A stretch of DNA of 64,000 nucleotides from an uncultured archaeon (GCA_964372485.1 CAYJQI010000001.1:323110-387109); one strand, 5' to 3'. Shown: positions 406 to 25,791, counted from the first letter of the stretch. A program made the numbers and translations. The notes: generated by a model from the letters alone, not told the origin.

Positions 406-1653
406 ATGAAAATTTCGATCTTGTCAGATTTACACTTTGGATATTCTTATTCAACCGAACTGGATAATGATTCTTTCGATAATGCAGAAGAAGCTATACA
501 GAAATCACTTGATTCAGATATTATAATTCTTGCTGGTGATATTTTTGATATTCGTGCGCCTAAGACACAAACATGGGGGAAGGCCTTGAAGATATTATCA
601 AAACCACTTCTTCAAGAGAGTTCAGGTGTAAGTCTAGTAGAAACAGACAAGCAACTTAAAGACATATCCAAACGGACTTTGAATCATATTCCTGTCATAT
701 CAATTCACGGTAACCATGAACGTCTCGTTAAAGGTGATGTTAATACAGTTGAAGCTTTGGAGAATGCAGGATTGGTTATTCATCTCCATCTCAATACGAT
801 AATTTTTGAAAAAAATGGAACAAAAGTTGCAATACATGGAATGTCCTCAGTTCCTGAAAGATATGCTAAAGAAGTTCTTGATAGATGGAATCCTAAACCT
901 GTAGAAGGCTGTGTTAACATTCTTTTAATTCATCAAAGTATCGATCCTTACATTTATTCTCCCTTAGAACCACCAAGTATCAGTCTTTCGAACCTTCCAA
1001 AAGGATTTGATTTGATAATCAATGGTCATCTTCACGGACACAACGTAGAAAAGATAGATGACAAAACCACTTTGATAATGCCGGGAAGTACGGTGATAAC
1101 ACAATTTGAAAAAAATGAAGCGGTAACAGAAAAAGTAATTGCGCGAGCCATTATTGAGAATAATGTAGTTATAACGGAATTTGTACCTTTAGAAACAAAT
1201 AGGAAATTCTATTACGAGGAACTCGAACTTCAACAATCATCATTAACAGTGAGAGATCAAGTAGAGAGAAAGTTGGCACAGGTCATAGCGATGGCTGGGA
1301 ATAACAAAAAACCTGTGGTCAGATTACGTCTAAAGGGAAACGAATTTAATGTAATGGACAGCGAACTCAGGAATATAGAAAATAAATTCTCCGATAAGGC
1401 AATTTTGATACTTGTAAAGGAATTGGAATCCCAGGAAATTGCAGAGAAACGAGAACTTTTGAAAAGTTTACGTGAACAAAAGATGTCAATTGAAGAAATG
1501 GGACTTAATTTACTGAATAAAAATCTAGAAGAATTTGGAGCTGAGAAATCTATGGACTATGATACTTTATTCCATCTATTAAGCGATGACCAGACGGATA
1601 GTGTATTGAATATTTTACTTGGCGAACAAGCAACGTTGCAAAGATCATTATGA
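406..1653 (+). CDS. mre11: DNA double-strand-break repair nuclease Mre11.
   Basis: Calcineurin-like phosphoesterase motifs (DLHFG, GDIFD, HGNHE, GHLH). Start of rad50 overlaps its end by 4 nt. Confidence 0.9.
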   Translation: MKISILSDLHFGYSYSTELDNDSFDNAEEAIQKSLDSDIIILAGDIFDIRAPKTQTWGKALKILSKPLLQESSGVSLVETDKQLKDISKRTLNHIPVISIHGNHERLVKGDVNTVEALENAGLVIHLHLNTIIFEKNGTKVAIHGMSSVPERYAKEVLDRWNPKPVEGCVNILLIHQSIDPYIYSPLEPPSISLSNLPKGFDLIINGHLHGHNVEKIDDKTTLIMPGSTVITQFEKNEAVTEKVIARAIIENNVVITEFVPLETNRKFYYEELELQQSSLTVRDQVERKLAQVIAMAGNNKKPVVRLRLKGNEFNVMDSELRNIENKFSDKAILILVKELESQEIAEKRELLKSLREQKMSIEEMGLNLLNKNLEEFGAEKSMDYDTLFHLLSDDQTDSVLNILLGEQATLQRSL

Positions 1654-4048: not shown

Positions 4049-4444
4049 ATGAAATCTCAGGTCGCTCTAGAGTATCTTATGGTTATTGGGTTGGCATTGA
4101 TCGTTGTAATACCGTTCTTCTATTATGCATTAACGAATTCATCGGATTCCGTTCTTGTAGCTCAAACTCAGGATGTTGTAGATACTTTAGCAAAAACAAG
4201 TGACTATGTTTATTCTTTAGGTACTGGATCATCTACAAAAATTGAGATAACAATACCTGAAAATATTAAACGCAGTGCTTTGGAAGGTCATCTTATCATA
4301 CTCGAATTGCATACTAGTTCTGGTGTTACAAATGTTACGGCTTCTTCACGTGCAAATTTGATTGGCACTATACCGATAGAATCAGCTACATATTCAATAT
4401 TAGTCAATATGACAGGATCAAATGTGGAAATTAAGAAGGTTTAG
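4049..4444 (+). CDS. Pilin-like protein with a class III (type IV prepilin-like) signal peptide.
   Basis: N-terminus MKSQVALEYL followed by a hydrophobic helix (DUF361-like QxxLEY motif). Lies 32 nt after rad50. Confidence 0.6.
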   Translation: MKSQVALEYLMVIGLALIVVIPFFYYALTNSSDSVLVAQTQDVVDTLAKTSDYVYSLGTGSSTKIEITIPENIKRSALEGHLIILELHTSSGVTNVTASSRANLIGTIPIESATYSILVNMTGSNVEIKKV

Positions 4445-4446
4445 TT

Positions 4447-4860
4447 ATGAAAGGTCAGAGTGGATTTGAAGTCCTTATAGCAATCTCTTTAGTTCTGATA
4501 CTTTTAATTTTTTCCATAATAGCATATGTGACAAAACGCGGGGAGGTGGATTTTACACGAGAACATATAGAAGCACAAACAATTTGTTTTGAAATCAAAA
4601 ATGTGATAAATCAAATATTTTCTGATGGACCTGGTGCGAATTTGCCATTGAATGTTTCCAGTAAATTGGAAGATAATGATTTTAACGTGACTGTTAATTC
4701 TCCTAGCCGATCCATATCCGTTGAATGGAAAGGAAATGTATTTTCATGTACGATGGTCGTTCAAAATGTCACTAACAGTACTTTCAGTAAAATTTTCAAT
4801 ATAAAAAGCGGAACGTCGACTATAAAAAATGTTGAGGGAGTTGTTGTAATTGAACCGTAA
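4447..4860 (+). CDS. Pilin-like protein with a class III signal peptide.
   Basis: MKGQSGFEVL followed by a hydrophobic stretch. KG|Q is a PibD/EppA-type cleavage motif. Confidence 0.65.
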   Translation: MKGQSGFEVLIAISLVLILLIFSIIAYVTKRGEVDFTREHIEAQTICFEIKNVINQIFSDGPGANLPLNVSSKLEDNDFNVTVNSPSRSISVEWKGNVFSCTMVVQNVTNSTFSKIFNIKSGTSTIKNVEGVVVIEP

Positions 4861-5353
4861 AGGACAATTTATCACGACAGAACTTTTGGTAACAATGTCA
4901 ATTATAATATTTTTGTTCATTGTTGCTACATTCATGTGGAATACCATATCGGACAAAATTGTTGAAAACAGGGTAAGAAATGAAGTAAGAACTACTGCTA
5001 TAGATGTTTCCGATCAACTTTTAAAATCTAGTGGTGTCCCATCTGATTGGGAAACAAGGCCAGGTCAAAATTTTTCTATAGGACTAGTGGATAGAGACAA
5101 TAAACTAAACATAAATAAGACTTTGGAATTGAAAAAAATGAATTACCCTTCACTCAAAACTTCGCTAGGTGTATCTGCATATGGATTCTATTTTAAAGTT
5201 ACTGACCTTTTTGGAAATATTTTAAGTTATTCTGGAAATAATCTTGATGCCGGTTTAAAACCAACTTCAAATGCTAGTATGATAGTAAATTCCAAACGCC
5301 TAGCAATATGGAACAACAATATAGTTTCTGTGGATGTGGTATTATGGCTATGA
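4850..5353 (+). CDS. Pilin-like protein with a class III signal peptide.
   Basis: MNRKGQFITTELL followed by a TM helix. Overlaps the upstream gene by 11 nt. Confidence 0.6.
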   Translation: MNRKGQFITTELLVTMSIIIFLFIVATFMWNTISDKIVENRVRNEVRTTAIDVSDQLLKSSGVPSDWETRPGQNFSIGLVDRDNKLNINKTLELKKMNYPSLKTSLGVSAYGFYFKVTDLFGNILSYSGNNLDAGLKPTSNASMIVNSKRLAIWNNNIVSVDVVLWL

Positions 5354-6867
5354 GACATGGATTTGTTTTTAGCTTAGATACAGCTCTGGCAATTACGATT
5401 GCAATATTTTTAATTGCAGGAACTTTTTATTTTCTCAATGCCAATGAATCTGATGCGTTCAGTAGGTTATACATGACAAAATTTGCAAATGATCTTCTGA
5501 TAACCGCCGATAAAAATGGAACACTCGAAACATTGAACACGTCTTTCATAAGGAATATGTTATCCAATACGATCGCATCAAATTTTGCTTCTAAAATTAC
5601 AATCGATTCATATCAATGCTTTAATCAACAATGTCAAAATTTCAGCAAGACAAACACTACCATAATGTTCATTCCAACTGCAAAAATAGATGTTGTGCTT
5701 GTGTTTGACACATCGGGAAGTATGGATGATGATGGTATAGAGCAGTCTCCAGGAGTTTGTTTTAATCAACGGCAACCTATTTGTGATGCAAAAGAAGCTG
5801 CAAAAGGCTTTATTGATTTATTAGATCCTGTCAATGACAGATCTGGATTGGTTGCTTTTAATACTACTGCCATATTATCCAACCCTCTTACATATAATCA
5901 TGTGTCAATTAAAAATGGGTTGACAAACCTTGTTGCAAGTGGTAATACGGCTATAGGGGACGGAATAAATGTTGCAAATCAAGAACTTCAAAGTAACGGA
6001 AGACAAGATTCAAAATATTTTATAATACTTTTAACAGATGGTATGAACAATCAGGGGCTAGAACCGCTCATGGCTACCGACGATTCTGTGGATATTGGAG
6101 TTCCAATTTATACTATAGGATTAGGTGAAGATGTGAATGTAGAGCAACTTCAAACTATTGCAAATACTTCAGGAGGAAAATATTACTTTGCACCTACCAG
6201 TGATCAATTGGAAGGTATCTATAATGAAATAGCTGCGGATATTTTCGGAGAAGCTGATAATTATGTTATTGCACGGAGAAGTTTCCTTACTTTCGACAGT
6301 AATCGAATCAAATATTTCAACATTGCTGAAATACGAATGTGGTTGAGAGATATAATAACAGAGTTCCATCCAAAAAGTGTTTTCTATCATAGTTTTGAAG
6401 ATTTAGGTTGTGAGGGCGAAAATTGTTTCAATACTACGGTTTGGGATCCAATAGAAAGAGGTGGTGATAATAATGAAGCTACAACGCAAGATGCTCGTTC
6501 TTACACTGGCGATTTTTCTGCTGAACTGGAGGAAGGCGATGAAGGAGAAGTTGCACTTACCACTGCGGCAGGGTTAATAAATTTGGCTGGTTATTCGAGC
6601 TGTACTCTAAAACTATATGTTAATTTAGACAGTAACTGGGAAACGACTGATGATATTTTCCTAGACATATACGATGGCAGTTGGCACTATGGGGTTCTAA
6701 AAATAGACGGTGACCTGATCGATGATGATGAATGGCATCGTTTCAAGTTTTCCTTCACTTCACAGAACTATGTCTTCGATAACAATTTCCGATTAAGGAT
6801 AGATCATGAAGCGAGTGATGATAACGAAGAAGCATTTTACGATGATATAAGAATATTATGTTCCTAG
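5344..6867 (+). CDS. vWA (MIDAS) domain protein with a pilin-like N-terminus. Putative pilus adhesin.
   Basis: MAMRHG|FVFSLDTALAITIAI pilin-like N-terminus. vWA motifs DVVLVFDTSGSMDDD and LLTDGMNN. The track start at 5308 is probably an over-extension. Confidence 0.65.
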   Translation: MAMRHGFVFSLDTALAITIAIFLIAGTFYFLNANESDAFSRLYMTKFANDLLITADKNGTLETLNTSFIRNMLSNTIASNFASKITIDSYQCFNQQCQNFSKTNTTIMFIPTAKIDVVLVFDTSGSMDDDGIEQSPGVCFNQRQPICDAKEAAKGFIDLLDPVNDRSGLVAFNTTAILSNPLTYNHVSIKNGLTNLVASGNTAIGDGINVANQELQSNGRQDSKYFIILLTDGMNNQGLEPLMATDDSVDIGVPIYTIGLGEDVNVEQLQTIANTSGGKYYFAPTSDQLEGIYNEIAADIFGEADNYVIARRSFLTFDSNRIKYFNIAEIRMWLRDIITEFHPKSVFYHSFEDLGCEGENCFNTTVWDPIERGGDNNEATTQDARSYTGDFSAELEEGDEGEVALTTAAGLINLAGYSSCTLKLYVNLDSNWETTDDIFLDIYDGSWHYGVLKIDGDLIDDDEWHRFKFSFTSQNYVFDNNFRLRIDHEASDDNEEAFYDDIRILCS

Positions 6868-6900
6868 GATCTAATAATAAGCAAATACAATAAATAATTT

Positions 6901-7830
6901 ATGAAGGGAATTGTTTCTACGTTAATTATATTGTTAATTTTCACTGTATCTTTGTTACTTGCAATAAGCTTTTCATCTAAAACATTGGAACTGGATGATA
7001 TAGTAATACGAAATCTTGTGCTGGATAAGGTTTATAATACATTTATTTCAATAGAACATGCCGTTCAAGAATTGATGCTCTTTGTATCCCCAAATGGTGG
7101 AATTAATGTTACTATATCTGATCAAAATAACTTTACAATAGTTACTTTCAATGAAACATTACCACGATATGTAAACTCTTCTAAATTTAATGAAGATTTG
7201 GAGAACTTTGAAAGATTCGCAGAAACGAAACTAAACGAAACAAATATAGCAGTTGATTTAATTCTTGATGCTAAATGCCTTTCCTTCGTTATTCAACCAT
7301 ACAATATAACATATACACATAATCCTGGGATAGATTGTTTGAGTGTAAGTGCTCATACAGAAGTTGTTGTAGATCCACAATCCAGTTGGCAGTATGTGAA
7401 TGGATACTCGTTTATTTTCAGGCCAAATGGTAATTTATCTGGAGCATCTATTACAGGATGGAGCGGTCCAGGTTGCAATAAGCCAGGGTTAGGACTCAAT
7501 ATAACTATCGCAGGTAAAGATATCACATTAGGTCCTTCTGCGACTACCAGCAATTACAATAGAATGTGTAGATACAATATTGATGATATATCATGCCCGG
7601 CTGGATTAGGCTATATTCACCTTATCCATAATCAAAATTCCGACGTTACCGATAATGGTGTAGTAGATATAGAAATTCATCCTAATTGCAACATTACGTC
7701 GGCAGTGTCATTGAATTTGACTAAAACAACAGGAAAGGTAAGCGTAGAGTCACTTTTCCAAAAAATAAAGATAAAGGAAACCCTATATAGAATAGAAAAG
7801 AATGACACAATCCGGAATATTGGTGGTTAG
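6901..7830 (+). CDS. Secreted, sequon-rich protein with a pilin-like N-terminal TM segment.
   Basis: MKG|IVSTLIILLIF N-terminus, many N-x-S/T sequons and six Cys. Confidence 0.45.
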   Translation: MKGIVSTLIILLIFTVSLLLAISFSSKTLELDDIVIRNLVLDKVYNTFISIEHAVQELMLFVSPNGGINVTISDQNNFTIVTFNETLPRYVNSSKFNEDLENFERFAETKLNETNIAVDLILDAKCLSFVIQPYNITYTHNPGIDCLSVSAHTEVVVDPQSSWQYVNGYSFIFRPNGNLSGASITGWSGPGCNKPGLGLNITIAGKDITLGPSATTSNYNRMCRYNIDDISCPAGLGYIHLIHNQNSDVTDNGVVDIEIHPNCNITSAVSLNLTKTTGKVSVESLFQKIKIKETLYRIEKNDTIRNIGG

Positions 7831-8952
7831 TTGAGAACTATAATGGATATTATAAAAGATCTTTTGAATCGACGTCAAAAGCAAGTTGAAATCACACTTT
7901 CAGAGCCAATAGAACCTCCATCACAACCAATTAGAAAAGTTAAGAGAAGGGTTAAACGGGTTAGAAGAACAAAAGCAAAAATAAAAACTACTCGTACAAA
8001 ATCAGTTGTGAAAATTAAACCACCTCGAATAAGCACCGTTGCACCTGAGAAAGAAATTGAAATACCCAAAATTCAAGTTTCTTCAGTAGAGAAATTGCAA
8101 AAAATTCTAGAACAAAGTGATCTATCAACTTCTCCAAAACAAGAAAGTAATGTAATAAAACCTGCTCAAAAAAGTCGGTTTCATCTTAGTTTTCCATCAT
8201 TTCGAAGAATAAACAAATCTAGCGAACAAAAATTGCGATCACCAATTCCACATAAAACTAAAAAAGAATCATTTGTAACAAAAATTCCTACAGAGCATAT
8301 CACAGAAGCTATTGTTGCCGATGTTATGTCACGAGATGTTAGTTCATTAGAACCGAATGATACAATAAGTTACGCGATCAGATTATTTTCAGATAGAAAA
8401 ATAAGTGGTGCCCCAGTGGTGAAAGGTACCAATTTGGTAGGTATGTTGGTTGAATCTGATATAATAAAACTCATAGGAAGCAAGGAACTTTTATTAGGTC
8501 AGGGAAAGGGACTGAAATCTCTCGGGGAGATTAAAGTGGAAGGTGTTATGCATAGAAATCCAATTACTGTGCGTGAGTATACAAAATTATCTGAAGTAGC
8601 GGATTTGATGAATAAATACGGAATCACACAAATACCAGTTTTAGATGAGCGACGAGAATTAACTGGAGTTTTATCACGTAGCGATATAATGCGTGCAGTC
8701 TCCAAGAAATTATTATTCAAGTTATTACAAAAACACGAAGTACAGGAGGTTATGAAAGTAGATACGGATATTGATGAGATTCTTCAAATTGTTGAAAGGA
8801 GAGGATCGATCGGGATGGATGAAATTCAGAAAAGATTAACAATACCTGAAGACAAAATTGAAGAATGGGGTAAGATTCTAGAAAGACATAACTTGATTGA
8901 GATGTTCTATCCCCCTATTGGAAAGCCAGAATTTAGGAAGAAGATATCATGA
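7831..8952 (+). CDS. CBS-pair domain protein with a basic low-complexity N-terminus and a winged-helix-like C-terminus. Putative regulator.
   Basis: K/R-rich repeats (RKVKRRVKRVRRTKAK), two CBS-like modules (VMSRDV ... GAPVV ... GVMHRNPITV ... IPVLD). Its stop overlaps the ATPase start. Confidence 0.7.
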   Translation: MRTIMDIIKDLLNRRQKQVEITLSEPIEPPSQPIRKVKRRVKRVRRTKAKIKTTRTKSVVKIKPPRISTVAPEKEIEIPKIQVSSVEKLQKILEQSDLSTSPKQESNVIKPAQKSRFHLSFPSFRRINKSSEQKLRSPIPHKTKKESFVTKIPTEHITEAIVADVMSRDVSSLEPNDTISYAIRLFSDRKISGAPVVKGTNLVGMLVESDIIKLIGSKELLLGQGKGLKSLGEIKVEGVMHRNPITVREYTKLSEVADLMNKYGITQIPVLDERRELTGVLSRSDIMRAVSKKLLFKLLQKHEVQEVMKVDTDIDEILQIVERRGSIGMDEIQKRLTIPEDKIEEWGKILERHNLIEMFYPPIGKPEFRKKIS

Positions 8953-10481
8953 AGGAAAATGAAGTAATTGCAAAATATTTTATAGAGGGGTATAAGGTTA
9001 AAGCAGAAGTTAGTGTTGAACGAACTATAAAGGAATTTGTTCCATTATATGTTTTGAAACTCCCCGAGATACAGCCAGCCACTTTGGCTTTGATGGATCA
9101 GATAAGAGAAAAGATTTTAGCACAAGCTGCAATTAAGACGACAGAATTATTAGAACCAAAAGCTTTCGAAGACCTCAAAGTAAAATTTTATGAAAGGGCT
9201 TATGAATTAGTTAGCAGAGAATTGGCAAATGAAACTCAAAACGTGTGGCAGTTTCTTGCTGGTATGCTTGTTTATGAGATGTTGGGTTTAGGTAGATTGG
9301 AACTTTTAATTGCTGATGGGGAACTTGAGGATATTGTAATCAACAATGCAGAAGATCCGATATGGGTATATCATAGAAAACATGGATGGCTTAAAACCAA
9401 TGTTGTAGTCCCCTCAGAATCACAAATTCAAAATTATGCTGCAACAATCGGACGAAGAGTTGGTAGACAAATAACTACACTGGCTCCATTGATGGATGCT
9501 CACATGACGACAGGTGATAGGGTTAATGCCACGTTATTCCCTATCAGTACTTCTGGAAATACGATAAGCATACGAAAATTCAGGAGAAAACCATGGGTAA
9601 TTACCGAACTTTTAGAAAGCAACACATTGTCTTTGGATATAGCCGCTTTATTGTGGTTGGCGATTCAGTATGAAAGTAATGTGATTTTCTCAGGTGGAAC
9701 AGGGTCTGGTAAAACAACTTTTCTAAATGTTCTGATGCCATTTATCCCGCCAAATCAAAGAATACTCAGCATAGAAGATACACGAGAGATTCAATTACCA
9801 AGATTCTTGCACTGGGTTCCATTAACAACTAGAGAACCAAACCCTGAGGGTAAAGGTGGAGTTTCAATGTTGGACCTTCTTGTGAATAGCTTGCGTATGA
9901 GGCCAGATAGAATCGTTGTCGGTGAGATTAGAAGAGGTGAACAGGCAGAGGTTTTGTTTGAAGCAATGCATACAGGTCACAGTGTTTATGCAACACTTCA
10001 CGCAGATACAGCAGAGCAAACTTATCGAAGATTGATTAATCCACCAATTAATGTTCCGCAGACATTGTTAGAAGCATTGCATCTTATTGCGGTTGCCTTC
10101 AGAGATAGAAGAAAAGGTATACGTAGAATTTTCCAAATAGCTGAAATTGTTCCGGTAACAAAATGGGAAGAGTACAGTCCACATATTAACGTTTTGTACA
10201 AATGGAATCCTGCAGACGATATAATTAAAAAAGTTAAAGAAAGTGTGCGAGTTTTAGATGAATTGAAACTGCATACAGGAATGACTGATCAAGAATTCCA
10301 AAAGGATTTGATAGAAAAAGCATCCATCTTAAAATGGATGAAGGATAAGAAAATCAATACAGTCGATGGTGTAGGAAAAGTAGTTGTTGAATATTATTTT
10401 GACCCCGATAAAGTTTTGAGTGTTGTTAAAAAGAATGAGAATCCGACAACGCTTGTTCCACCGGCACTGCTTCAGGTGTGA
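8949..10481 (+). CDS. Type IV pilus / secretion ATPase, FlaI/TadA/VirB11 family.
   Basis: Walker A FSGGTGSGKTTFLNV, followed by IEDTREIQL and His-box-like motifs. Confidence 0.85.
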   Translation: MKENEVIAKYFIEGYKVKAEVSVERTIKEFVPLYVLKLPEIQPATLALMDQIREKILAQAAIKTTELLEPKAFEDLKVKFYERAYELVSRELANETQNVWQFLAGMLVYEMLGLGRLELLIADGELEDIVINNAEDPIWVYHRKHGWLKTNVVVPSESQIQNYAATIGRRVGRQITTLAPLMDAHMTTGDRVNATLFPISTSGNTISIRKFRRKPWVITELLESNTLSLDIAALLWLAIQYESNVIFSGGTGSGKTTFLNVLMPFIPPNQRILSIEDTREIQLPRFLHWVPLTTREPNPEGKGGVSMLDLLVNSLRMRPDRIVVGEIRRGEQAEVLFEAMHTGHSVYATLHADTAEQTYRRLINPPINVPQTLLEALHLIAVAFRDRRKGIRRIFQIAEIVPVTKWEEYSPHINVLYKWNPADDIIKKVKESVRVLDELKLHTGMTDQEFQKDLIEKASILKWMKDKKINTVDGVGKVVVEYYFDPDKVLSVVKKNENPTTLVPPALLQV

Positions 10482-11386
10482 ATATGCCTCAACGCCGTAT
10501 ACCATTTGTACTTTTTTCCACTAATAGAATTTTAAATTATTCAAGGAGCCTTGGATTATTTGGTATAGGTAATCGAATTTCAAAATTATTTCCATTCCTT
10601 TCACTTTACTTGTATCAATCAGAATCAACTCATGACGCAGGTGAATATGTTTCTATCGCCCTTTTTTCTGCTATTACATGGTTTATAATTCCATTCTCAT
10701 TCGGAATGTTTCTTTCATTAGTAGCGACACTTCCTTCTAATTTTCCTTTAATTATTACAGCGGTCTCTTTTGCAATGTTTGGATTATCATTTTTGTATAT
10801 AATTTTTTATCCCAGAGTATTTGTTACAAGAAGAACTCGTGAGTTGGAGAAGAATTTGCTATTCGCATTAAGACATTTGATGATTCAGGCAAAATCTGGT
10901 ATACCTCTTTTTGATTCGATGGCATCTGTCGCACGCGCAAATTATGGTTTGGTATCCAAAGAATTCAATGAAGTTGTTCGAAGGATCAGTACAGGAGTAA
11001 GAGATGTAGAGGCGTTGGAAGAATTGGCTTTGAAAAATCCATCATTATACTTCCGACGAGCTCTTTGGCAAGTGTCAAATGCAATTCGAGTCGGAGCTGA
11101 TATAGGAAACACATTGGAAATTATCATACAAAATCTTGCGAATGAACAAAGAATACTTGTAAGAAAATACGGTTCACAACTTAATCCTCTTGCATTTCTT
11201 TACATGATGTTTGGTGTAATAATGCCAAGTTTAGGCATAGCATTGTTGATAATATTATCATCTTTCGCAGGATTGCCAATTAAAAAATATTTCTTCTGGG
11301 CGATTTTGGGATTTCTGGTTATTTTCAAGTTTAACTTTCTTGGAATAGTCAAAAGCAGAAGACCATCGGTGGAAGTTTATGTATAG
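10478..11386 (+). CDS. Pilus platform membrane protein, first half (TadB/FlaJ-like T2SSF domain).
   Basis: Polytopic membrane protein with one T2SSF-like domain. Overlaps the ATPase gene by 4 nt. Confidence 0.7.
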   Translation: MNMPQRRIPFVLFSTNRILNYSRSLGLFGIGNRISKLFPFLSLYLYQSESTHDAGEYVSIALFSAITWFIIPFSFGMFLSLVATLPSNFPLIITAVSFAMFGLSFLYIIFYPRVFVTRRTRELEKNLLFALRHLMIQAKSGIPLFDSMASVARANYGLVSKEFNEVVRRISTGVRDVEALEELALKNPSLYFRRALWQVSNAIRVGADIGNTLEIIIQNLANEQRILVRKYGSQLNPLAFLYMMFGVIMPSLGIALLIILSSFAGLPIKKYFFWAILGFLVIFKFNFLGIVKSRRPSVEVYV

Positions 11387-12362
11387 ATTCTTTTATGCAC
11401 TCAGCCCTGTGAAATACAGGAAGTGGGTTACACAACAACTCAACTATTGTGATTTTTCAGTATCGCCAATAAAATTAATTGGTTTCTTGATAATTTTTGG
11501 TCTGATGGCAGGATTTGCTGCAGGTTTACTTTTGTACGGATTTGGGATTGTCGGATTAATTGGTTTTCTTATTACTTGGATAGCGGTGTTGATGGGTTTT
11601 GAAATATTGAGTCATCTCACTTTGATTTTCGTTGCAGATGGCAGAGCAAATTTCGTAGAACAGATTTTACCGGATGCACTACAGATAGTTTCTGCAAATA
11701 TGCGTTCAGGATTGACTCCAGATAAGGCAATTTTGACATCGGCACGACCGGAATTTGGTCCACTTGAGAAAGAATTGAGAAAAGCAGCAAAGGAGACTTT
11801 ATCGGGTAAATCTTTCGAAGATGCGTTGAAAGGGGTTACTGCAAAAATTAAATCAAAAAGTTTAGATAAGACAATTGCACTTGTTGTTGAAGGATTATCG
11901 AAAGGCGGAAGCATAACAAGTCTATTGGATAGCGTGGCAGATGATATAAGACAGGCTCGAGTGCTCAGAAATGAAATAAAATCATATGTCATGATGTATG
12001 GAATATTTATTTTCTTTGCAGCTGGTGTCGGAGGACCTTTGCTTTACTCTGTTGCAACGTATTTGATACAAACAATGACAACTATTGGGGGCTCTGTTGA
12101 TTTGGGAGATTCTTTGACACAATCTTCAATACCATTGCTTAAATTTGGATCGGCTGAGATAGATGTGGATTTCTTACGAACGTATTCCTATATTGCTATA
12201 GTAGTGACAGCATTTTTTGGTAGTTTGTTGATAGGACTGGTTCAGGAAGGCACTGAAAAAGGTGGTTTGAAGTTTTTCCCGATTCTTCTAGTTGTTGGAT
12301 TGGGCGTTTTTACAGTAACTCAGATCGCTCTAAAAGGTATTTTTGGTACACTTGCGGGATAG
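11379..12362 (+). CDS. Pilus platform membrane protein, second half (TadC/FlaJ-like T2SSF domain).
   Basis: Second T2SSF-like domain with TM helices. Overlaps the previous gene by 8 nt in a different frame. Confidence 0.7.
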   Translation: MYRFFYALSPVKYRKWVTQQLNYCDFSVSPIKLIGFLIIFGLMAGFAAGLLLYGFGIVGLIGFLITWIAVLMGFEILSHLTLIFVADGRANFVEQILPDALQIVSANMRSGLTPDKAILTSARPEFGPLEKELRKAAKETLSGKSFEDALKGVTAKIKSKSLDKTIALVVEGLSKGGSITSLLDSVADDIRQARVLRNEIKSYVMMYGIFIFFAAGVGGPLLYSVATYLIQTMTTIGGSVDLGDSLTQSSIPLLKFGSAEIDVDFLRTYSYIAIVVTAFFGSLLIGLVQEGTEKGGLKFFPILLVVGLGVFTVTQIALKGIFGTLAG

Positions 12363-12388
12363 TGCTTTATAAGGCAGGAAAACGAAAT

Positions 12389-12874
12389 ATGAGTTATATG
12401 TTTAAAATAGTACGAAAAGGCCAAACGGCTTTGGAATACTTGATGACTTACGGGTGGGCTATATTGATAGTAATCATTGCTATCGGTGCCCTTTACGCTT
12501 TAGGACTTACAAAACCATGTAGATGGACAGGAACACAAATAACAGGATTCACAGGTGGTGGATTCGAAGCATCTGTTCCGAGATTTAGTGGAGGTGGCGA
12601 CGATCTAGTATTGGACTTCAAAAGAATCGGAGCCAATTCAGTAAATTTCTATCACGCAAATGCAACGTACAAGACAGCACATATCGACTTGAACTCAACT
12701 GAACCTAATGCGATATTGGCGACAGGCGCAACAAAAACAGTCACATTTGATTTCAATCCTCCAGAAGATTCATCATCCGGTGACTGCTATGCAGTTGATA
12801 TAATACTAGGCTACAGCGAAAGTGGAAGAAATTTCACAGCAGCAGGTCGAGTTAGCGGAACAATTGAAACTTAA
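12389..12874 (+). CDS. Pilin with a class III signal peptide.
   Basis: MSYMFKIVRKG|QTALEYLMTYGWAILIV. The track start at 12362 is a GTG extension. Confidence 0.65.
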   Translation: MSYMFKIVRKGQTALEYLMTYGWAILIVIIAIGALYALGLTKPCRWTGTQITGFTGGGFEASVPRFSGGGDDLVLDFKRIGANSVNFYHANATYKTAHIDLNSTEPNAILATGATKTVTFDFNPPEDSSSGDCYAVDIILGYSESGRNFTAAGRVSGTIET

Positions 12875-12875
12875 A

Positions 12876-14378
12876 TCACATAAAAGTCTCTAAATCAGTA
12901 GCACTAAGATTAGAATCAGCGAAACCCAAAAGTTCGTCTTCAAGATTTTTTCCTTTCCCAATTATTTTACTTTTTCTTTCTCTTACATTAACCAAAATAG
13001 GGTAGTTCACAGCTTCTCCAACAATAAATGCTTCACCAACTTTTAATCCTGGAATTGAACTTAATATACCGCTTGTAATTCCTTCTGAACTTTCTTTTAT
13101 ATGATCGAGGTCGTACGGGTTAGTTACACGCATAATGATGTCGGTATTGCATTGTGAAAGTGCGGTTGTAGCTAATCCGGCAGGTCTTTGTGTTATCAAT
13201 GTTAAACAAGCATTAAACTTTCTACCTTCACGAGCTATTTGTTCGATTATACTTCTAGATAATGCAAGATCATGTTCTTCGCCTTCCGGTGCGAATTGAT
13301 GCGCCTCTTCTACAAATAAAACGAATGGAGATATTTTCTTTTGTCGTCTCGCTTCGAATAATTTCCATGCAAAGTAAGCAACAATTATTTGTTTTCTTTT
13401 AATGTCCACAATATCCGACAAATCAAAAATACTTAGATTTCCTTTGAATGCAAGATCCTTTATCGAAGGATAGTCTCTGTTGGAAAATAATCCTGTATAT
13501 TCAATTTCATGCAACCAAGATGCCAGAACTTCTTTTGTATTGTCTTTAATCTCACTTTTCAATACTGCATCAATAAGATCTTGCATGTTGTATGTAGGTT
13601 TTTCTTCCCTGAGTTTTCTAATCACAGGTCCAAGTTCTCTTCTTTGAACAGCAGAAATTTTTGGCTGTAAAACTGAAAGTTGATATGCAGACAAACTATT
13701 CGTCGATATACTGATTTCATTTGCATTGTAAACTTTGGTGGATAATCTATACTTTTCATCCTGCGCAAATCCACTATATTCACCATGCGGATCCACAATA
13801 ATTACAGACGGCCTTGCATTTCTTTCTCTGTTAAGAAGTTCTTCCAATAAAACTGAAGTTAAATATGATTTTCCTGCACCGGACATTGCAAGTATGGCTA
13901 GATGTTTTTGGAATAGTTTTGTAATATTAATTTTAGCATCGATATTATGAAATTCAACTTTACCAAGATTCAATCCAGAATTAACATCCAATCCCAAAGC
14001 ATTGTTCAATAAAGTTTCATCAATTGGAAATACATCATTCCCAGGTGATGGGGGAAATGTTACTCGTTTTTGCATTCCATTAGAGAAAATTCCTAAAGGA
14101 CGCGCCTGAGCAATTAAATATTCCCATCTATCAACAGGAAATTGATCGATGAGAGGTTTGCCTGAACGTTCAAATTCACTCACAGATTCTGCACGTTGAT
14201 AATAACGGTTGGTTTTTATAATATCTTCCACTCGAGCAACTAGAACTCCATCTTGAGTGTCCAATTGAATAAATTCACCTTTCCTTACAGGCACACCTTT
14301 ATTCTCATTTAGAACGAACCAGAATTCCGTACTGTTTGGGCCTAGCTCAGATGAAATAACTGTGCCAATCTCTCGCAT
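12876..14378 (-). CDS. herA: HerA-like (DUF87) FtsK-superfamily ATPase.
   Basis: N-terminal barrel, Walker A MSGAGKS, IVDPHGEY, Walker B VEEAHQF and a QRPAGL C-terminus. Convergent with the last pilin gene. Confidence 0.75.
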   Translation of the reverse strand: MREIGTVISSELGPNSTEFWFVLNENKGVPVRKGEFIQLDTQDGVLVARVEDIIKTNRYYQRAESVSEFERSGKPLIDQFPVDRWEYLIAQARPLGIFSNGMQKRVTFPPSPGNDVFPIDETLLNNALGLDVNSGLNLGKVEFHNIDAKINITKLFQKHLAILAMSGAGKSYLTSVLLEELLNRERNARPSVIIVDPHGEYSGFAQDEKYRLSTKVYNANEISISTNSLSAYQLSVLQPKISAVQRRELGPVIRKLREEKPTYNMQDLIDAVLKSEIKDNTKEVLASWLHEIEYTGLFSNRDYPSIKDLAFKGNLSIFDLSDIVDIKRKQIIVAYFAWKLFEARRQKKISPFVLFVEEAHQFAPEGEEHDLALSRSIIEQIAREGRKFNACLTLITQRPAGLATTALSQCNTDIIMRVTNPYDLDHIKESSEGITSGILSSIPGLKVGEAFIVGEAVNYPILVNVRERKSKIIGKGKNLEDELLGFADSNLSATDLETFM

Positions 14379-14410
14379 AGTTTTTAAGTTGAATGTAAAA
14401 AGATAAATGT

Positions 14411-15169
14411 ATGGTCATCAAGTTTATCACGAACTACCCAGCGGCTTTAATTACGGATAAGAAGATTCTTGTAATCTCTGATATCCACATAGGACTAGAA
14501 TCGGAACTTGGAAGTGCTGGAGTAAGAATTCATAAGCAAATAGAAAAATTCCAGGAAATCCTTTACAAATTGATCGAATTAACAGATGCAAAAACTTTGG
14601 TAATTTTGGGAGATGTTAAACACAAAGTTCCTGGAGCAACGATGCAAGAATTGAGAGATATACCTAAATTCCTACAAAATCTTTCTTCAAAAGTAAAAGT
14701 TATTATAACAAAAGGAAATCATGACGATTATTTGGAAACAATGGTACCAACTGGAGTTAAAATATACGGGAGCAAAGGATTCAAAATTGGAAAATATGGA
14801 TTTTTTCATGGTCATGCAAAACCTGGTAAGACTCTTCTAAAATGTGATCAACTTTTCATAGGTCATTTGCAGCCTTCAGTGGAATTTAGAGATGGTTTTG
14901 GATATGCTACCCGTCAACAAGTGTGGTTGAAAGGTAAATTAAATCCCGACGTTGTAAAAAAGTTGTACAAAACCAAATCAACTGGAAAAATGAATATAAT
15001 AATTGTTCCTTCTTTCAATTCCATGATCGGAAGTATGAATGTTATATCAACCGAAGATCTGTTAGGACCATTATTAGTGAATGAGATGGTTCAATTGGAT
15101 ACAATGCGTACATATCTTCTTGATGGGACGTATTTGGGATTGTTGAGTTCAATAAAAGAACAAATTTAA
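14411..15169 (+). CDS. Calcineurin-like metallophosphoesterase (Mre11/SbcD-like fold).
   Basis: Motifs SDIHIG, GDVKH, GNHDD and GH. Divergent from herA across a 32-nt gap. Confidence 0.7.
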   Translation: MVIKFITNYPAALITDKKILVISDIHIGLESELGSAGVRIHKQIEKFQEILYKLIELTDAKTLVILGDVKHKVPGATMQELRDIPKFLQNLSSKVKVIITKGNHDDYLETMVPTGVKIYGSKGFKIGKYGFFHGHAKPGKTLLKCDQLFIGHLQPSVEFRDGFGYATRQQVWLKGKLNPDVVKKLYKTKSTGKMNIIIVPSFNSMIGSMNVISTEDLLGPLLVNEMVQLDTMRTYLLDGTYLGLLSSIKEQI

Positions 15170-15183
15170 ACGATAAAACACAA

Positions 15184-16497
15184 ATGGATAGTATGAAATC
15201 TACCTTTTTTGTGTCTTTAGTATTGGTAGTGATGAGTGCATCGATTGTGGGTTTTGCACATGCAGACGAGACTGGTTCAAAAACAGGCACTCTTCGAGAT
15301 TTTGCACAAAAGATAGAACAACTAACTCCAGAACAACAACAAAGGTTGCGAGAATTGACATTGGAGAAAACAAGAAATCTAGGCGAATTAAATACACCTA
15401 CTCTTGAAAAGGTTTCACAACTCAATCCAGATGAATTGGAAAAATTGACTTTATTGGGAAAAAGTAGATTGAATGAACTATCAGCTCTTGACAGGGAGAT
15501 GCTTAAAAAAAGATTGGAAAATATAACTATTGAAAGAGTGACGAAAGAACGATTGTTGGAGAAACGAGATATTCTGCAAGGAAAAATAGAGGAAGCACGA
15601 GAAAAAGTAGATGAGTTGAAGGATAGAATAAAAGATCTGAGATCTGAAATAAATGAGAGCAAGAAAGATCTTCAAGAAATACGAGATGAGTTAAAATCAT
15701 GTAAAAATTCGACTTCTGTAGAATGTAATGAAACGAAATCTAGGGCATTAGAGCACGGAAAGAAAGTAGTTCTTAGAAATATTGATCTTGCAATAGATCA
15801 CCTCAATAAAATCAAAGCTCACATTGAAGGAAATGATGACATTGATGAAACTACAGCGAATGAAGCTATAGCAGATATAGATGCCGCGATTGCAGAACTT
15901 GAAGCCTTGAAACCTAAAGTAGAAGGTGCAACTACACTTGCAGAGTTGCGTGATTTAGCTAAACAAGTAAAAGCTGTTTGGAAAAGAATTGAACATCGCG
16001 CCAGATTACACGCTGCAAATTCAATACTTTCTGATGTAGGAGAAATTTTGAGCAGAGCACGACATCTTGAAAGAAAATTGGAAAGAGTACTTGCCTTCGC
16101 AGACAAACACGGAGTTGATGTTTCTGATTTGAACGGTTCAATTAATGATTTTTCTGATAAAGTAGAGTCAGCACGAGTTAAGATAGAAGAATCTAAATCA
16201 AAATTCAAAGAAGCCAAGGAATTGCGAAATGCATCGAGAGCAGATGGTAATATAACGGACGACGAGTCGTCACAAATTAAATCATTATTGAACGAATCTC
16301 GTGTATTATCAAGGGAAGCACATCAATTGCTGAAAGATGCACACGTTATTTTGAAATCCATCTCTGCAAGTATTCGAGAAAGAATAACAGTGGAAACAGA
16401 AGTTGAAATAAAAGAAGAAGAACTCGTTAATGTGGAAGTTGATTTGAATGCTGAGGTGGGTGAACCAGAAGCAGTAGAAATAAATGAGGGATCATAA
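15184..16497 (+). CDS. Secreted coiled-coil protein.
   Basis: Signal peptide MKSTFFVSLVLVVMSASIVGFAHA. The rest is E/K/L-rich heptad-like sequence. Confidence 0.5.
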   Translation: MDSMKSTFFVSLVLVVMSASIVGFAHADETGSKTGTLRDFAQKIEQLTPEQQQRLRELTLEKTRNLGELNTPTLEKVSQLNPDELEKLTLLGKSRLNELSALDREMLKKRLENITIERVTKERLLEKRDILQGKIEEAREKVDELKDRIKDLRSEINESKKDLQEIRDELKSCKNSTSVECNETKSRALEHGKKVVLRNIDLAIDHLNKIKAHIEGNDDIDETTANEAIADIDAAIAELEALKPKVEGATTLAELRDLAKQVKAVWKRIEHRARLHAANSILSDVGEILSRARHLERKLERVLAFADKHGVDVSDLNGSINDFSDKVESARVKIEESKSKFKEAKELRNASRADGNITDDESSQIKSLLNESRVLSREAHQLLKDAHVILKSISASIRERITVETEVEIKEEELVNVEVDLNAEVGEPEAVEINEGS

Positions 16498-19156: not shown

Positions 19157-21499
19157 TCATTTGCTTTCAGTAATAGTTTTCTTTTTGCGGCCAAACATTG
19201 AAAAGAATTTTTTCAATCCAGTCGGTTTCTTTTCGTCAGCAGGTTTTGCGAATACATATCCGGTTGCAGTTCTATATCCTTTCTTCGATGGCCAGAACAA
19301 GTACCCTACAAATGCTACGATGACTATAATAAGAATCACTACAACTATTATCCAAACACTCGAAGACACGTTCAATAATCCGTTAGGCTCGGCAGATTCA
19401 ATTCGTGCCTCAATTTCTGCAATGAGAGCTTGGACAATATCCAAAGTTTCTTCTGCGTTGAAATAATCGTTAGCGGTTATGTAATCTTCGGCTTGCTTCA
19501 ATGCAGCTTTCAATTCGTTTAATTTTTGTTCTATAGGCTCAGTATTGTTTGTAGTATTTTTAATTGCGTTAAATTCACTTTCCAATTTACTTGCTTCTAA
19601 TTTGTATAAAATTAATGTATCATTTATCTTAATTTTTGTTTCAGCCGATGGAAGAATTCTTAATGTGAAATCTTTTGTTACTGTTGTGTTTGTGCTACTT
19701 GCAGAGAATTTTGCAGCATAATCCCTTATATCAAATCCTTTTATTGTGAATGTAATTGTATATGAAAGTGTCTGTCCTATTGCAAATTTCTTAGTCGCTT
19801 GATCAATAGTATACCAACTTTTATCGAGATCTAGTATATCCAAAGTTATGTTTTGTTCAACCCCACCAGTGTTTTTAATTTTAATTTCTGTTATATTGGT
19901 TTGGTTCTGGATTATCTCTATCAATTGAGGATATTGGATGAAGCTTATGCTGGCCGATGGAGTGAGTTTTATAGACAATGTATTCTTACTGGTTCCAGTT
20001 GTGTAATTTTGATCTGAAGTGCTGTTACAAAGATATTCATATTTGCTTCCTGCAGTGAAGGTTTGTGTTTCGGGATTACTTACAGACGTCAAGTTTCTGT
20101 ATAGATTCGCTGTTAATCCACTCACTCCTACCGAACAAGTTACAACAGTTTGCACAGGAGTGTCCAATTCCCATTGAGGAGATATTGTAAGAGTTAATGG
20201 TGCAGCGGCTTTATTAATTGTAAATGATGTTGATGGAGTTAAATTGAATACATGATCCTGATATTTTCCAAATATTCTCCATGAATGAGTGCCGGCCGGC
20301 AAGGAAGCATTATAATAATAGTAAAGACTCGAGTTTGTTAAAGTGAAATTTTGAGTTGTACTCCATCCTCCTTCTATGAACGAAGTTACAAAGCCAGGAT
20401 TACTTGCAAATGTTGTGTTGAATATGCTATAAGTTGTGTTTGAAAATGTAAGAGGGATATTTGATGTGGTTGTTGTATAACTTGGAACTGTTGCAACAAA
20501 ATAAGTTGCAGTATTTGTGCTATAGTTAGTATTTGTAGCAACGGTAACAGTATAGTTATGCAATCCTATTGATGTAATCACATCATTTATCGTGTATGTG
20601 TTAGGAACACCAGACGCAACTGTTGTGGTGTTGTCTCTCGTTATCGTAACATTACAATTGGTTTGAGAACATGTTGCATTTGTAGTTATGTTGATTGCGG
20701 TATTGTTTATAGCTGTTATGTTTGTGTTTAATGACCCATTTAGATATACTTTTAATGTGTTGGTCGCTTTCGCTACTAAATATGTGAATTGAATTGTTGA
20801 ATTGAATGTGTTGTTTGTGTCATTTGCATATACTCTCCAAACATACGTACCGGCAGAAAGATCGGAAGTGTTGAAATAATACACACTGCTTGAATTGCTC
20901 ATTGTTTCGTTATGGATGGTAGAGCTTCCTGTTATATTGTGTTCTAACAAAACTTTTGAAATCCCCACATTATCTGTCCATGTTATGTTAAACCAGTAAC
21001 TTTGATTTTGAGCATAACTAGTGTTTGAGCTTGGAGTTGTTGTATTGCTTGAATATGCAGGAGCGATGATGTCAAATAATGTTAATGATACATTGTTGGA
21101 AGTAAATGCACCGGTTATGTCTGTTGTTGATATGTTGAATCCATTACTTCCAGTTGATAGCGGAGTGTCGACGTATATCCAGAAATATTGTGTGGCTCCA
21201 TTTCCAATTAGTCCCAGTATAGAACTATTTGTCCATGCAGGAGAAGATGATGAAGCTGTATAAGGGTTTGTATTTGTTGTACCGGAGCTTCCCGTGAATG
21301 CAAATCCAGGAGGTAGTGTGATATTCAAGTGGGTGATGTTTACAGATCCTGTATTTGCAATAGAAAAGTTGATTAGTTGACTGCTTTGTCCAGATGCAAG
21401 TGTTGTTGGGCTGGAACTAGCTGTAAATGTCGCAGCTAAAGAAGTGCTCACTACGATAAAGAAAGCCAATAAAGAAAAGAGAATAATCAATCTTGTCAT
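19157..21499 (-). CDS. Large cell-surface protein with many N-glycosylation sequons (S-layer or adhesin candidate), C-terminal TM anchor.
   Basis: Signal peptide, T/N/S-rich with dozens of N-x-T/S sequons, internal repeats, and a C-terminal hydrophobic helix followed by a basic tail. Confidence 0.6.
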   Translation of the reverse strand: MTRLIILFSLLAFFIVVSTSLAATFTASSSPTTLASGQSSQLINFSIANTGSVNITHLNITLPPGFAFTGSSGTTNTNPYTASSSSPAWTNSSILGLIGNGATQYFWIYVDTPLSTGSNGFNISTTDITGAFTSNNVSLTLFDIIAPAYSSNTTTPSSNTSYAQNQSYWFNITWTDNVGISKVLLEHNITGSSTIHNETMSNSSSVYYFNTSDLSAGTYVWRVYANDTNNTFNSTIQFTYLVAKATNTLKVYLNGSLNTNITAINNTAINITTNATCSQTNCNVTITRDNTTTVASGVPNTYTINDVITSIGLHNYTVTVATNTNYSTNTATYFVATVPSYTTTTSNIPLTFSNTTYSIFNTTFASNPGFVTSFIEGGWSTTQNFTLTNSSLYYYYNASLPAGTHSWRIFGKYQDHVFNLTPSTSFTINKAAAPLTLTISPQWELDTPVQTVVTCSVGVSGLTANLYRNLTSVSNPETQTFTAGSKYEYLCNSTSDQNYTTGTSKNTLSIKLTPSASISFIQYPQLIEIIQNQTNITEIKIKNTGGVEQNITLDILDLDKSWYTIDQATKKFAIGQTLSYTITFTIKGFDIRDYAAKFSASSTNTTVTKDFTLRILPSAETKIKINDTLILYKLEASKLESEFNAIKNTTNNTEPIEQKLNELKAALKQAEDYITANDYFNAEETLDIVQALIAEIEARIESAEPNGLLNVSSSVWIIVVVILIIVIVAFVGYLFWPSKKGYRTATGYVFAKPADEKKPTGLKKFFSMFGRKKKTITESK

Positions 21500-23967: not shown

Positions 23968-25791
23968 TTACAAGAAAGCTTTAATTTTTTTCTTACCGAC
24001 AACAGCTCTTAACAATTCCTTACCAATTTCAGAATCCTTAGTTATCTTGATATCTCCCTTTTTTCCAACAGTTGCAGAAAATAAGAATTGATCTTCAACA
24101 AATACACTTGCAGCTCTACCAATTAAACTTCTGTTGAATACAAATTCAAAACTATTTCCCTTTTCAAACATATCAAACTGAATTTCATTTCCAGTAACTC
24201 CAGTTTTTGGTTCAACATCAATACGTATTCCTAATCTTTCTTCTAATCCATTAATTGTCACACCTTCCTTTCCAATTAATCGTGCAATAATATCGTTATC
24301 AACTCTTACTACTGCCTTATCCTCAGATACAAGCTCAACTTCAACATCAGGATCGAACTTTCTTATTTCTTGAACAATTCTTTCACTTGCCAATCTCTTG
24401 ACAGGAGATATTTTATTACTACCTTCTTTGACAGGAACAATAACGTTTTCTTCACCGAATGTGTAAATTTCATATTCAGTTGTTCCACTTTCAAAATCTT
24501 TTACTTCAACTAATGGTCTTGCTAAATCAGCTTCAGTCATCCCTGAAGGAACCTTCACACTCAATTCTAAATAGTAGACTTTCTTTATCTCACCAGCTTT
24601 TACAAAAATTACTGTATCAAGTATATGTGGAATTACTCCGAGTTCAATTCTACCGATGAATCTTTGAATGGCGTTAATTGCTTCACTTGCATGAACAACT
24701 CCTATCATTCCAACTCCTGCTAATCTCATGTCAGAAAATATTTCAAAATCTCTAGTCTTTCTAACTTCATCATATGCCGAATAATCCGGTCTTACCAAAA
24801 GTAGTATATCTGCTGTTTTTTCAAAATCACCTTCCAATGGACCATATTGTGTAACTTCAGGTGGAACTTGCAAATCACGTGGAGATTCTAATGTTTTTAC
24901 AATCTTTCCTTGCTTTTGATAAAAGTCAATCATCGATCCACATAATGTTGATTTACCTGATCCTGGTGGACCTGCGATAACAATACCTTCTGCTTTTTCT
25001 TTCAATCTTTTCATCAATTTTTCTGATAATTTGTAATCATCCAAAGTCAATCTTACAATTGGTCTTACAAGTGTTATTTCAACTCTTTCGGAGAATGGCG
25101 GTCGAGTTATAGCAATCCTATAATTACCAAGTTGTATAACTGTTGCGCCTGATCTGACTATTTCAAATGAACCTTCACTTCCCACTCGTGCAGCTTCTGA
25201 AATTTCTAAAATTATATCTTCGAGTTCTTTTTCTGTCATTGGTTTGTCATTTATTTTTACAAGTTCGAAATTACCAGGCTTTCCTCTCTTTGCCATTGGG
25301 ACAATATCTTCCTTTAAATGAAGTGATAATGTATCTGGCGTGAAGAATTTTTCAAATGTGAGTCCTTCAGTTTTTATTTCAGCTGCGATGTGAACTACAT
25401 TTACACCTTCAGCTTCACCAACAAGTGCTTGAACATAATCTGCTGTATATAATGTTCCGCTTTCTGATTTCGCGACATCTCGTATCAATGCATCCATCCT
25501 TCCAGATTTTGCAAGCTTGATATCTTCAATTGAAGGTCTGTCTCCTAGAAATCTCATCTTCAGTTTTTTCTGTTTACAAATTTCACGAAGTTTTTTTAAT
25601 TCTTCCAATCCTACAAATCCAGTTTCTCTTCCTTTCGAAGCTTGAGCTTGCAATTCATCTAATACCGCATAAGGTATAATAATCTCGACATTCTCCAATT
25701 CACCATCTTTTATCATCTGAGAAATCTTTCCATCGACAATTATGCTCGTGTCTAAAATTATTTTATTCAACTTTTCTACCATACAAATCAA
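23968..25791 (-). CDS. PIN-domain / P-loop ATPase / KH-domain protein (COG1855-like PilT-family ATPase).
   Basis: N-terminal PIN (ILDTSIIVDG), Walker A AGPPGSGKST and C-terminal KH (IGKEGVTINGLEERLG). Confidence 0.75.
   Translation of the reverse strand: MICMVEKLNKIILDTSIIVDGKISQMIKDGELENVEIIIPYAVLDELQAQASKGRETGFVGLEELKKLREICKQKKLKMRFLGDRPSIEDIKLAKSGRMDALIRDVAKSESGTLYTADYVQALVGEAEGVNVVHIAAEIKTEGLTFEKFFTPDTLSLHLKEDIVPMAKRGKPGNFELVKINDKPMTEKELEDIILEISEAARVGSEGSFEIVRSGATVIQLGNYRIAITRPPFSERVEITLVRPIVRLTLDDYKLSEKLMKRLKEKAEGIVIAGPPGSGKSTLCGSMIDFYQKQGKIVKTLESPRDLQVPPEVTQYGPLEGDFEKTADILLLVRPDYSAYDEVRKTRDFEIFSDMRLAGVGMIGVVHASEAINAIQRFIGRIELGVIPHILDTVIFVKAGEIKKVYYLELSVKVPSGMTEADLARPLVEVKDFESGTTEYEIYTFGEENVIVPVKEGSNKISPVKRLASERIVQEIRKFDPDVEVELVSEDKAVVRVDNDIIARLIGKEGVTINGLEERLGIRIDVEPKTGVTGNEIQFDMFEKGNSFEFVFNRSLIGRAASVFVEDQFLFSATVGKKGDIKITKDSEIGKELLRAVVGKKKIKAFL

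Follow-up and report, generated by a model that had tools for sequence, protein, structure and literature searches.

Head-to-head arrangement of herA and an MPE/PdeM-type phosphoesterase gene across Aenigmatarchaeota, with nurA probably encoded elsewhere

HerA, which moves along DNA as a hexamer, works together with Mre11-Rad50 and NurA. Does a herA gene without nurA beside it imply a HerA without NurA, and could a phosphoesterase encoded next to it serve as a substitute? These questions are raised by a 64,000-nucleotide (nt) stretch of DNA from an uncultured archaeon (GCA_964372485.1, CAYJQI010000001.1:323110-387109), the whole of which is referred to here as the window. In it, the gene for an ATPase of 500 amino acids (aa) (herA, 12876-14378, minus strand) lies head-to-head with the gene for a 252-aa metallophosphoesterase (mpe, 14411-15169, plus strand). 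The original prediction, made from this sequence alone, described a HerA-like ATPase paired with a second, Mre11-like phosphoesterase, which might replace NurA in end resection or form a separate HerA-nuclease module of the kind found in defense systems. Our analysis favors another reading, to which we assign a probability of roughly 60%: a genuine Aenigmatarchaeota herA stands head-to-head with an MPE/PdeM nuclease gene as a co-regulated DNA-repair pair, and nurA is located elsewhere.

The closest homologs of both proteins belong to Candidatus Aenigmatarchaeota (DPANN), and since the homologs of either protein align from residue 1, the annotated starts of both genes are right. The ATPase has a RecA-like DUF87 core (Pfam PF01935, E = 1.4e-29) and a putative, weakly matching HAS barrel (PF09378, 21.9 bits, below the cut-off of 25.2), for which some close HerA homologs have a precomputed match. 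The three motifs named in the original prediction were all found, namely Walker A (GAGKS, residues 167-171), DPHGEY (196-201), and Walker B (VEEAH, 356-360), and they are invariant in 15 homologs. Over its full length, the protein is 50% identical to a HerA from Iainarchaeia (locus L057), whose gene lies next to nurA. In a family-profile search, the best solved relatives were the HerA proteins of Thermococcus kodakarensis (9x1l, identified as such via PMC12977600; 176 bits) and Sulfolobus solfataricus (4d2i; 147 bits), with anti-phage HerA structures ranking behind both. Sequence alignments to the solved HerA proteins begin only at residue ~106 and leave the N-terminal 105 residues unaligned; the NurA-binding Trp76/Leu77 of T. 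kodakarensis HerA thus fall outside the region that can be aligned to the window protein. The NCBIfam HerA equivalogs, which are built on narrow lineages, were missed (NF040819, 158.7 bits versus 970; NF040937, 136 versus 800), and these missed cut-offs therefore reflect the divergence of DPANN from the model organisms and not an exclusion from HerA.

One genome per species was scanned with the HerA alignment, yielding 80 loci of which all genes were clustered. Rad50 is encoded next to or near HerA in 44 of these 80 loci and Mre11 in 28. With this context and the identity to L057, the label "HerA-like" proved too cautious: as judged from its sequence, the ATPase is the lineage's genuine HerA of the Mre11-Rad50 double-strand-break repair pathway, an FtsK/HerA-type protein with the predicted function of a hexameric DNA translocase.

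Three side observations concern HerA homologs and their possible associates. Some Aenigmatarchaeota HerA proteins (~840 aa) carry an insertion of ~340 aa right after Walker B (VEEAHQF / CLSSDTEIL...ITGN / CPEGEE), with intein-like ends and two LAGLIDADG-like motifs and without a Pfam intein domain at E < 0.001 (L016:2102-4636, plus strand; P0131, P0134, P0174, and P0230). At the Nanoarchaeota-labeled locus L075, a second, shorter DUF87/HerA_C ATPase of 425 aa (1819-3096, plus strand) is encoded immediately downstream of herA. Within the window, 9.6 kb from herA, a minus-strand gene (23968-25791) encodes a protein with a PIN domain, a secretion-type ATPase, and a KH domain, which is the architecture of archaeal PINA; PMC12977600 cites PINA as an ATPase interacting with HerA and Hjc in Sulfolobus.

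The neighbor of herA is, as originally described, a divergent calcineurin-like phosphoesterase (Pfam Metallophos, E = 1.8e-9), but its proposed likeness to Mre11 did not hold. Its best family is TIGR00024 ("SbcD_rel_arch"; COG1407), which it matches with 107.8 bits (cut-off 115.2); second comes PdeM, a ligase-associated endonuclease (TIGR04123, 61.6 bits versus a cut-off of 150). For the AlphaFold model (pLDDT 89.4), the best solved fold is the MPE of Pseudomonas putida (6NVO; E = 8.1e-10; TM score 0.70 by target and 0.57 by query), with YfcE (1.2e-4), LpxH, and Mre11 trailing by about five orders of magnitude. P. putida MPE is an Mn-dependent single-strand DNA endonuclease for which His81 and His113 are nuclease-essential (PMC7826289). 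Among 55 Aenigmatarchaeota sequences, the metal-site residues D24/H26, D68, N103/H104/D105, H133, and H152 are invariant or nearly so, and the equivalents of the two essential histidines, mapped by motif position and not by superposition, are H71 (conserved in 52 of 55) and H104 (55 of 55). The last histidine of the motif-V GHxH is replaced by Gln154 in the window protein (GHLQ). The same exchange (GHLQ, GHIQ, or GHNQ) occurs in 7 of the 54 other sequences, which fall into two separate clades: the four nearest relatives among the loci examined and, independently, three distant ones (L004, L005, L006, L011, L046, L060, and L076). This recurrence suggests that metal site 1 tolerates the change. 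Taken together, sequence and model identify the protein as a binuclear metallophosphoesterase of the MPE/PdeM type and as a predicted Mn-dependent single-strand DNA endonuclease.

A second Mre11 was considered and rejected: no Mre11 model matches, the sbcd subfamily reaches 27 bits where 77.65 would be required, alignment to Mre11 chains is confined to residues 15-105, and Mre11 folds are matched at E = 2.5e-4 or weaker with TM scores of 0.3-0.46. The genuine mre11-rad50 genes of this genome are located at 406-4016 of the window.

The 32 nt noted between the two start codons (14379-14410) are an A/T-rich, divergent spacer, and this arrangement recurs well beyond the window. Of the 72 loci with at least 1.2 kb of sequence upstream of herA, 48 have mpe there and, without exception, on the other strand, and in 35 of these 48 the start-to-start spacer measures 32-69 nt; the suspected co-occurrence of this phosphoesterase family with herA is thus borne out beyond chance. 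The mpe-herA junction is kept in 40 loci, compared to 23 for herA-rad50 and 8 for mpe-aIF5B. Literature searches returned no description of a HerA-metallophosphoesterase pair, nor of NurA in Aenigmatarchaeota, and the head-to-head arrangement of herA and mpe is both phylum-wide and previously undescribed.

Across the relatives, spacers are A/T-rich with one box at a constant distance of ~22-30 nt from the herA start, and longer spacers have a GTGA-type ribosome-binding motif ahead of mpe. We infer that the window spacer holds a pair of TATA-like boxes that face each other, one close to the start of herA (TTTTTAAG) and one close to that of mpe (AAAGATAAA). Either box would precede the start codon of the gene that it serves by ~22-30 nt. 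Such a distance implies leaderless or near-leaderless transcripts, and the spacer would accordingly comprise archaeal promoters that face and overlap each other, with herA transcribed without a leader. Since so short a divergent region has been kept across the phylum, overlapping promoters and joint regulation appear most likely; the shared control region of 32-69 nt would then drive both genes together.

The surroundings of the pair indicate to what it may once have belonged. In relatives, the usual layout is mpe on the minus strand and herA on the plus strand, followed by convergent rad50 and mre11 on the minus strand. A motif search and a profile search detected an Lhr helicase (DEAD, Helicase_C, WH_Lhr, and DEAD_assoc domains) on the far side of mpe in three loci, directly beside it in L076 and within ~2 kb in L046 and L060, in the order lhr> <mpe | herA>. 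An MPE gene is paired with an Lhr helicase gene in many bacteria and archaea (PMC7826289), and the TIGR00024/COG1407/cd07391 family has been reported to adjoin aLhr1 or aLhr2 in archaea, DPANN among them (PMC8301817). The Lhr-flanked mpe genes therefore connect the published Lhr-MPE pairing with the herA pairing described here, and they suggest an older, larger repair neighborhood of which only the tight mpe|herA junction is left in the window's clade. In the mechanism that we propose, lhr - mpe | herA - rad50 - mre11 would form one DNA-repair neighborhood with nurA near or far; HerA would act with Mre11-Rad50 and with a NurA encoded elsewhere, and MPE would trim single-stranded tails, flaps, or bubbles arising from the processing of DNA ends or stalled forks. 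HerA and MPE possibly cooperate beyond co-regulation, and any such cooperation would be a biochemical one.

The same observations lend themselves to a second explanation, which we regard as a real, though distinctly less probable, possibility: mpe could be the remnant of an older lhr-mpe pair located beside herA by chance, with MPE-Lhr and HerA-NurA working independently of each other. Under this explanation, any split of a 32-69 nt spacer with overlapping promoters would kill the expression of one gene, so that nurA and lhr would both have drifted away and the tight junction alone survived. That the three relatives with a flanking Lhr are early-branching fits well with it, and so does the lack of MPE fusions to HerA, Lhr, NurA, or any other domain among the best 150 of 2264 family representatives. 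Furthermore, among the loci scanned, the pair was not seen outside Aenigmatarchaeota, and other DPANN lineages have nurA-herA without mpe. However, the junction has been retained over HerA divergence down to ~46% identity amid reshuffled surroundings: beyond mpe, at least 8 different genes are encountered from locus to locus, and a pilus-like gene block has been inserted in both orientations. Moreover, where the pair is separated, mpe usually remains within a few kb of herA, and the products of both genes act on DNA ends or single strands.

A physical link between the two proteins is less probable still, and we consider it unlikely that MPE is a second, docked nuclease partner of HerA beside an unlinked NurA, or that it replaces NurA on some substrates. 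If this were true, one nuclease family would serve two DNA motors, Lhr and HerA, and lhr-mpe|herA-rad50-mre11 would mark a combined pathway of end processing and fork repair.

The substitution of NurA by the phosphoesterase, in a new HerA-MPE end-resection machine, was a further possibility. No NurA-like gene had been seen in the window, and this absence was confirmed. Pfam scans of 49 open reading frames (ORFs), among them every one of 200 aa or more that is not nested in a longer ORF of a different strand or frame, detected no NurA in the window. Neither did a DPANN NurA profile run on all ORFs and stop-to-stop fragments (best E = 5), nor tblastn with NurA from the window's own clade. Likewise, no nurA was found within 8 kb of herA in ~45 genomes of that clade. 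The position of mpe would also suit a substitute. NurA is encoded upstream of herA in 12 loci. In Iainarchaeia, Micrarchaeota, and Undinarchaeota, Pfam-confirmed nurA genes precede the herA ortholog and share its strand, directly adjacent in a few loci and up to ~4 kb away in others, and mpe, immediately upstream of herA, takes this place. Finally, a NurA profile search of a protein database yielded, among the 120 of 158 matches listed, none on the long herA contigs of the window's clade, including the 791,048-bp contig that encodes proteins identical to both of the window's, although a word filter limits the sensitivity of this search, and we judged the bin-level links described below to be weightier.

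Nevertheless, NurA and MPE are not mutually exclusive. Both nurA and mpe occur near herA in the sister clade (L042, L047, L048, and L070) as well as in L084, L089, and L093. Within the window's clade, a nurA (P0339) is located on contig JAZDPU010000066, which belongs to the same bin as L028 (JAZDPU010000039), a locus that carries mpe|herA and whose HerA is 62% identical to that of the window; a further nurA (P0352, on CAYPCO010000011) shares a bin with L079. Moreover, of the 80 nurA loci from metagenomes, 40 have P0339 as their closest counterpart and stand alone, with neither herA nor mpe in the surrounding sequence of up to 10 kb; in the NurA tree, each HerA clade has one corresponding group. 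On the basis of these bin-level links, stand-alone loci, and tree groups, this genome most likely does encode nurA, unlinked to herA; in this clade, nurA often neighbors a gene for a MetRS-like class I synthetase. Since nurA coexists with mpe in some genomes and is unlinked in others, the substitute reading is contradicted, and we hold it to be very improbable. The circumstances that had been named as speaking against a HerA system of this kind were encountered only in part: a nurA does exist elsewhere, in a bin of the window's clade, but it does not lie beside a second herA, and the ATPase falls inside the HerA clade.

With regard to the surroundings of nurA itself, the gene is located beside, or within ~2 kb of, an opposite-strand MetRS-like gene in L084, L097, L102, L105, L112, L118, L128, L151, and L170, which makes this a conserved neighborhood. 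No MetRS is encoded in the window, and shared flanking genes tie the stand-alone nurA loci to it only weakly or distantly. The window-clade locus L020 carries a MetRS, and the 0.9 kb of sequence beyond it contain no nurA. Where mpe is missing, the candidates for a nurA beside herA proved to be unrelated genes, encoding GARS, a CCA-adding enzyme, a Rad50 fragment, cation transporters, a TPR protein, and a radical SAM enzyme. On one metagenomic contig (L166:17609-19078), a CRISPR ancillary protein of the Csm6/Cas02710 type is encoded near a stand-alone nurA, as is a sigma-70-like protein.

That herA|mpe represents an anti-phage defense module of the HerA-plus-effector type, the separate module that had also been considered, can practically be dismissed: while the HerA models of a defense library match at the family level (best 184 bits) and anti-phage HerA structures occur among the solved relatives, this herA occurs as one orthologous copy amid a constant set of housekeeping genes across the phylum (aIF5B, rad50-mre11, ProRS, and proteasome), the NCBIfam anti-phage HerA models score far below threshold (NF042943, 127 bits versus 800; NF042944, 125 versus 850), and neither a Sir2 nor a DUF4297 partner is present, the best partner-model match of the phosphoesterase being PDC-S10 with 24 bits.

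Several points weigh against the co-regulated repair pair that we favor. Adjacency within one phylum can be inherited without functional coupling, and a junction kept solely by promoters that are hard to separate is a serious concern. Lhr was found near mpe in only 3 of 48 loci, and in neither the window nor the other 45. The link of nurA to the window's clade depends on a single bin, to which a contig of 2.9 kb might have been wrongly assigned. Furthermore, with Gln in place of the last metal-binding histidine (GHLQ), the activity of the window's enzyme may differ.

If the link in the co-regulated pair is functional, MPE, so far known only as a companion of Lhr, is wired to the HerA/Mre11/Rad50 genes throughout a phylum, which would hint at cross-talk between two repair pathways in archaea with tiny genomes. 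What sets the locus apart is a modest change of gene order; it does not constitute a new repair machine. The main value of these results is corrective: a herA without an adjacent nurA does not imply a HerA without NurA, as nurA is commonly unlinked in these genomes. Similarly, a small phosphoesterase encoded near repair genes is not to be taken as an extra Mre11.

The window as a whole has a low G+C content (~35%) and is archaeal chromosome with genes for translation, tRNA synthetases, exosome, and proteasome. The mre11 gene (406-1653, plus strand) has Metallophos and weak Mre11 NCBIfam matches and clusters with the Rad50-adjacent Mre11 of 28 related loci; rad50 (1650-4016, plus strand) matches SMC_N, SbcC Walker B, and Rad50 NCBIfam models and shares a cluster with the Rad50 of 44 loci. 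In most relatives, rad50 lies directly beside herA; in the window, the two are separated by a pilus-like block (7831-12874, plus strand) for which Pfam indicates a CBS protein, a T2SSE-type secretion ATPase, two T2SSF/TadC-like membrane proteins, and a small pilin-like protein. This block is also found beside herA, in either orientation, in L008-L010, L014, L049, L050, L052, and L062, and it is not part of the repair module. Ahead of it, at 4049-7830, there are three small ORFs, a gene for a VWA-domain protein, and a gene for a 309-aa protein without family. Directly downstream of mpe, where relatives encode a DUF5667 protein, the window has a plus-strand gene (15184-16497) for a secreted coiled-coil protein of 437 aa. 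Further on, a minus-strand gene (19157-21499) encodes a secreted protein of 780 aa with many Asn-x-Ser/Thr sequons, a C-terminal membrane anchor, and no Pfam family, which may be a surface-layer protein. The region 25800-50919 shows an unusual density of aminoacyl-tRNA synthetases within 25 kb, comprising HisRS, an IleRS-like enzyme, AlaRS, a LeuRS-like enzyme, the alpha and beta subunits of PheRS, and a Tyr/TrpRS.

In comparison with known systems, the locus resembles the anti-phage Sir2-HerA and DUF4297-HerA systems in that the gene for a HerA-family ATPase lies beside one for a predicted nuclease or hydrolase; it differs from them in lacking a Sir2 or DUF4297 effector, in scoring far below the family cut-offs, and in its conserved housekeeping context on the chromosome. 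With Mre11/SbcD, the phosphoesterase shares the metallophosphoesterase superfamily and the N-terminal motifs I-III, whereas it lacks the capping and Rad50-binding domains, is shorter (252 versus ~400 aa), is not encoded next to rad50, and gives much weaker matches in both fold and sequence. Its closest structural counterpart, P. putida MPE, has the metal ligands and both nuclease-essential histidines in common with it; however, identity is 17%, the window protein has ~35 extra residues and a conserved C-terminal YLLDGT, its last metal-binding histidine is a glutamine, and its nuclease activity is a prediction. The Lhr-MPE two-gene cluster (Ejaz and Shuman; PMC7826289, PMC8301817) contains the same nuclease family, and Lhr near mpe in three Aenigmatarchaeota provides a further parallel. 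In contrast to that cluster, the window and most relatives have herA and not Lhr as the constant neighbor, HerA is a hexameric FtsK-type translocase whereas Lhr is an SF2 helicase, and herA|mpe is divergent instead of co-directional. Finally, the Mre11-Rad50-HerA-NurA cluster of Sulfolobus and Pyrococcus/Thermococcus has an orthologous herA with the same DUF87 core and motifs and probably the same HAS barrel, and mre11-rad50 is located in the same neighborhood, 9 kb away in the window. Unlike in this cluster, nurA is absent from the window locus and unlinked in its clade, herA is convergent with rad50-mre11 and not co-transcribed with them, and it is mpe that stands head-to-head with herA.

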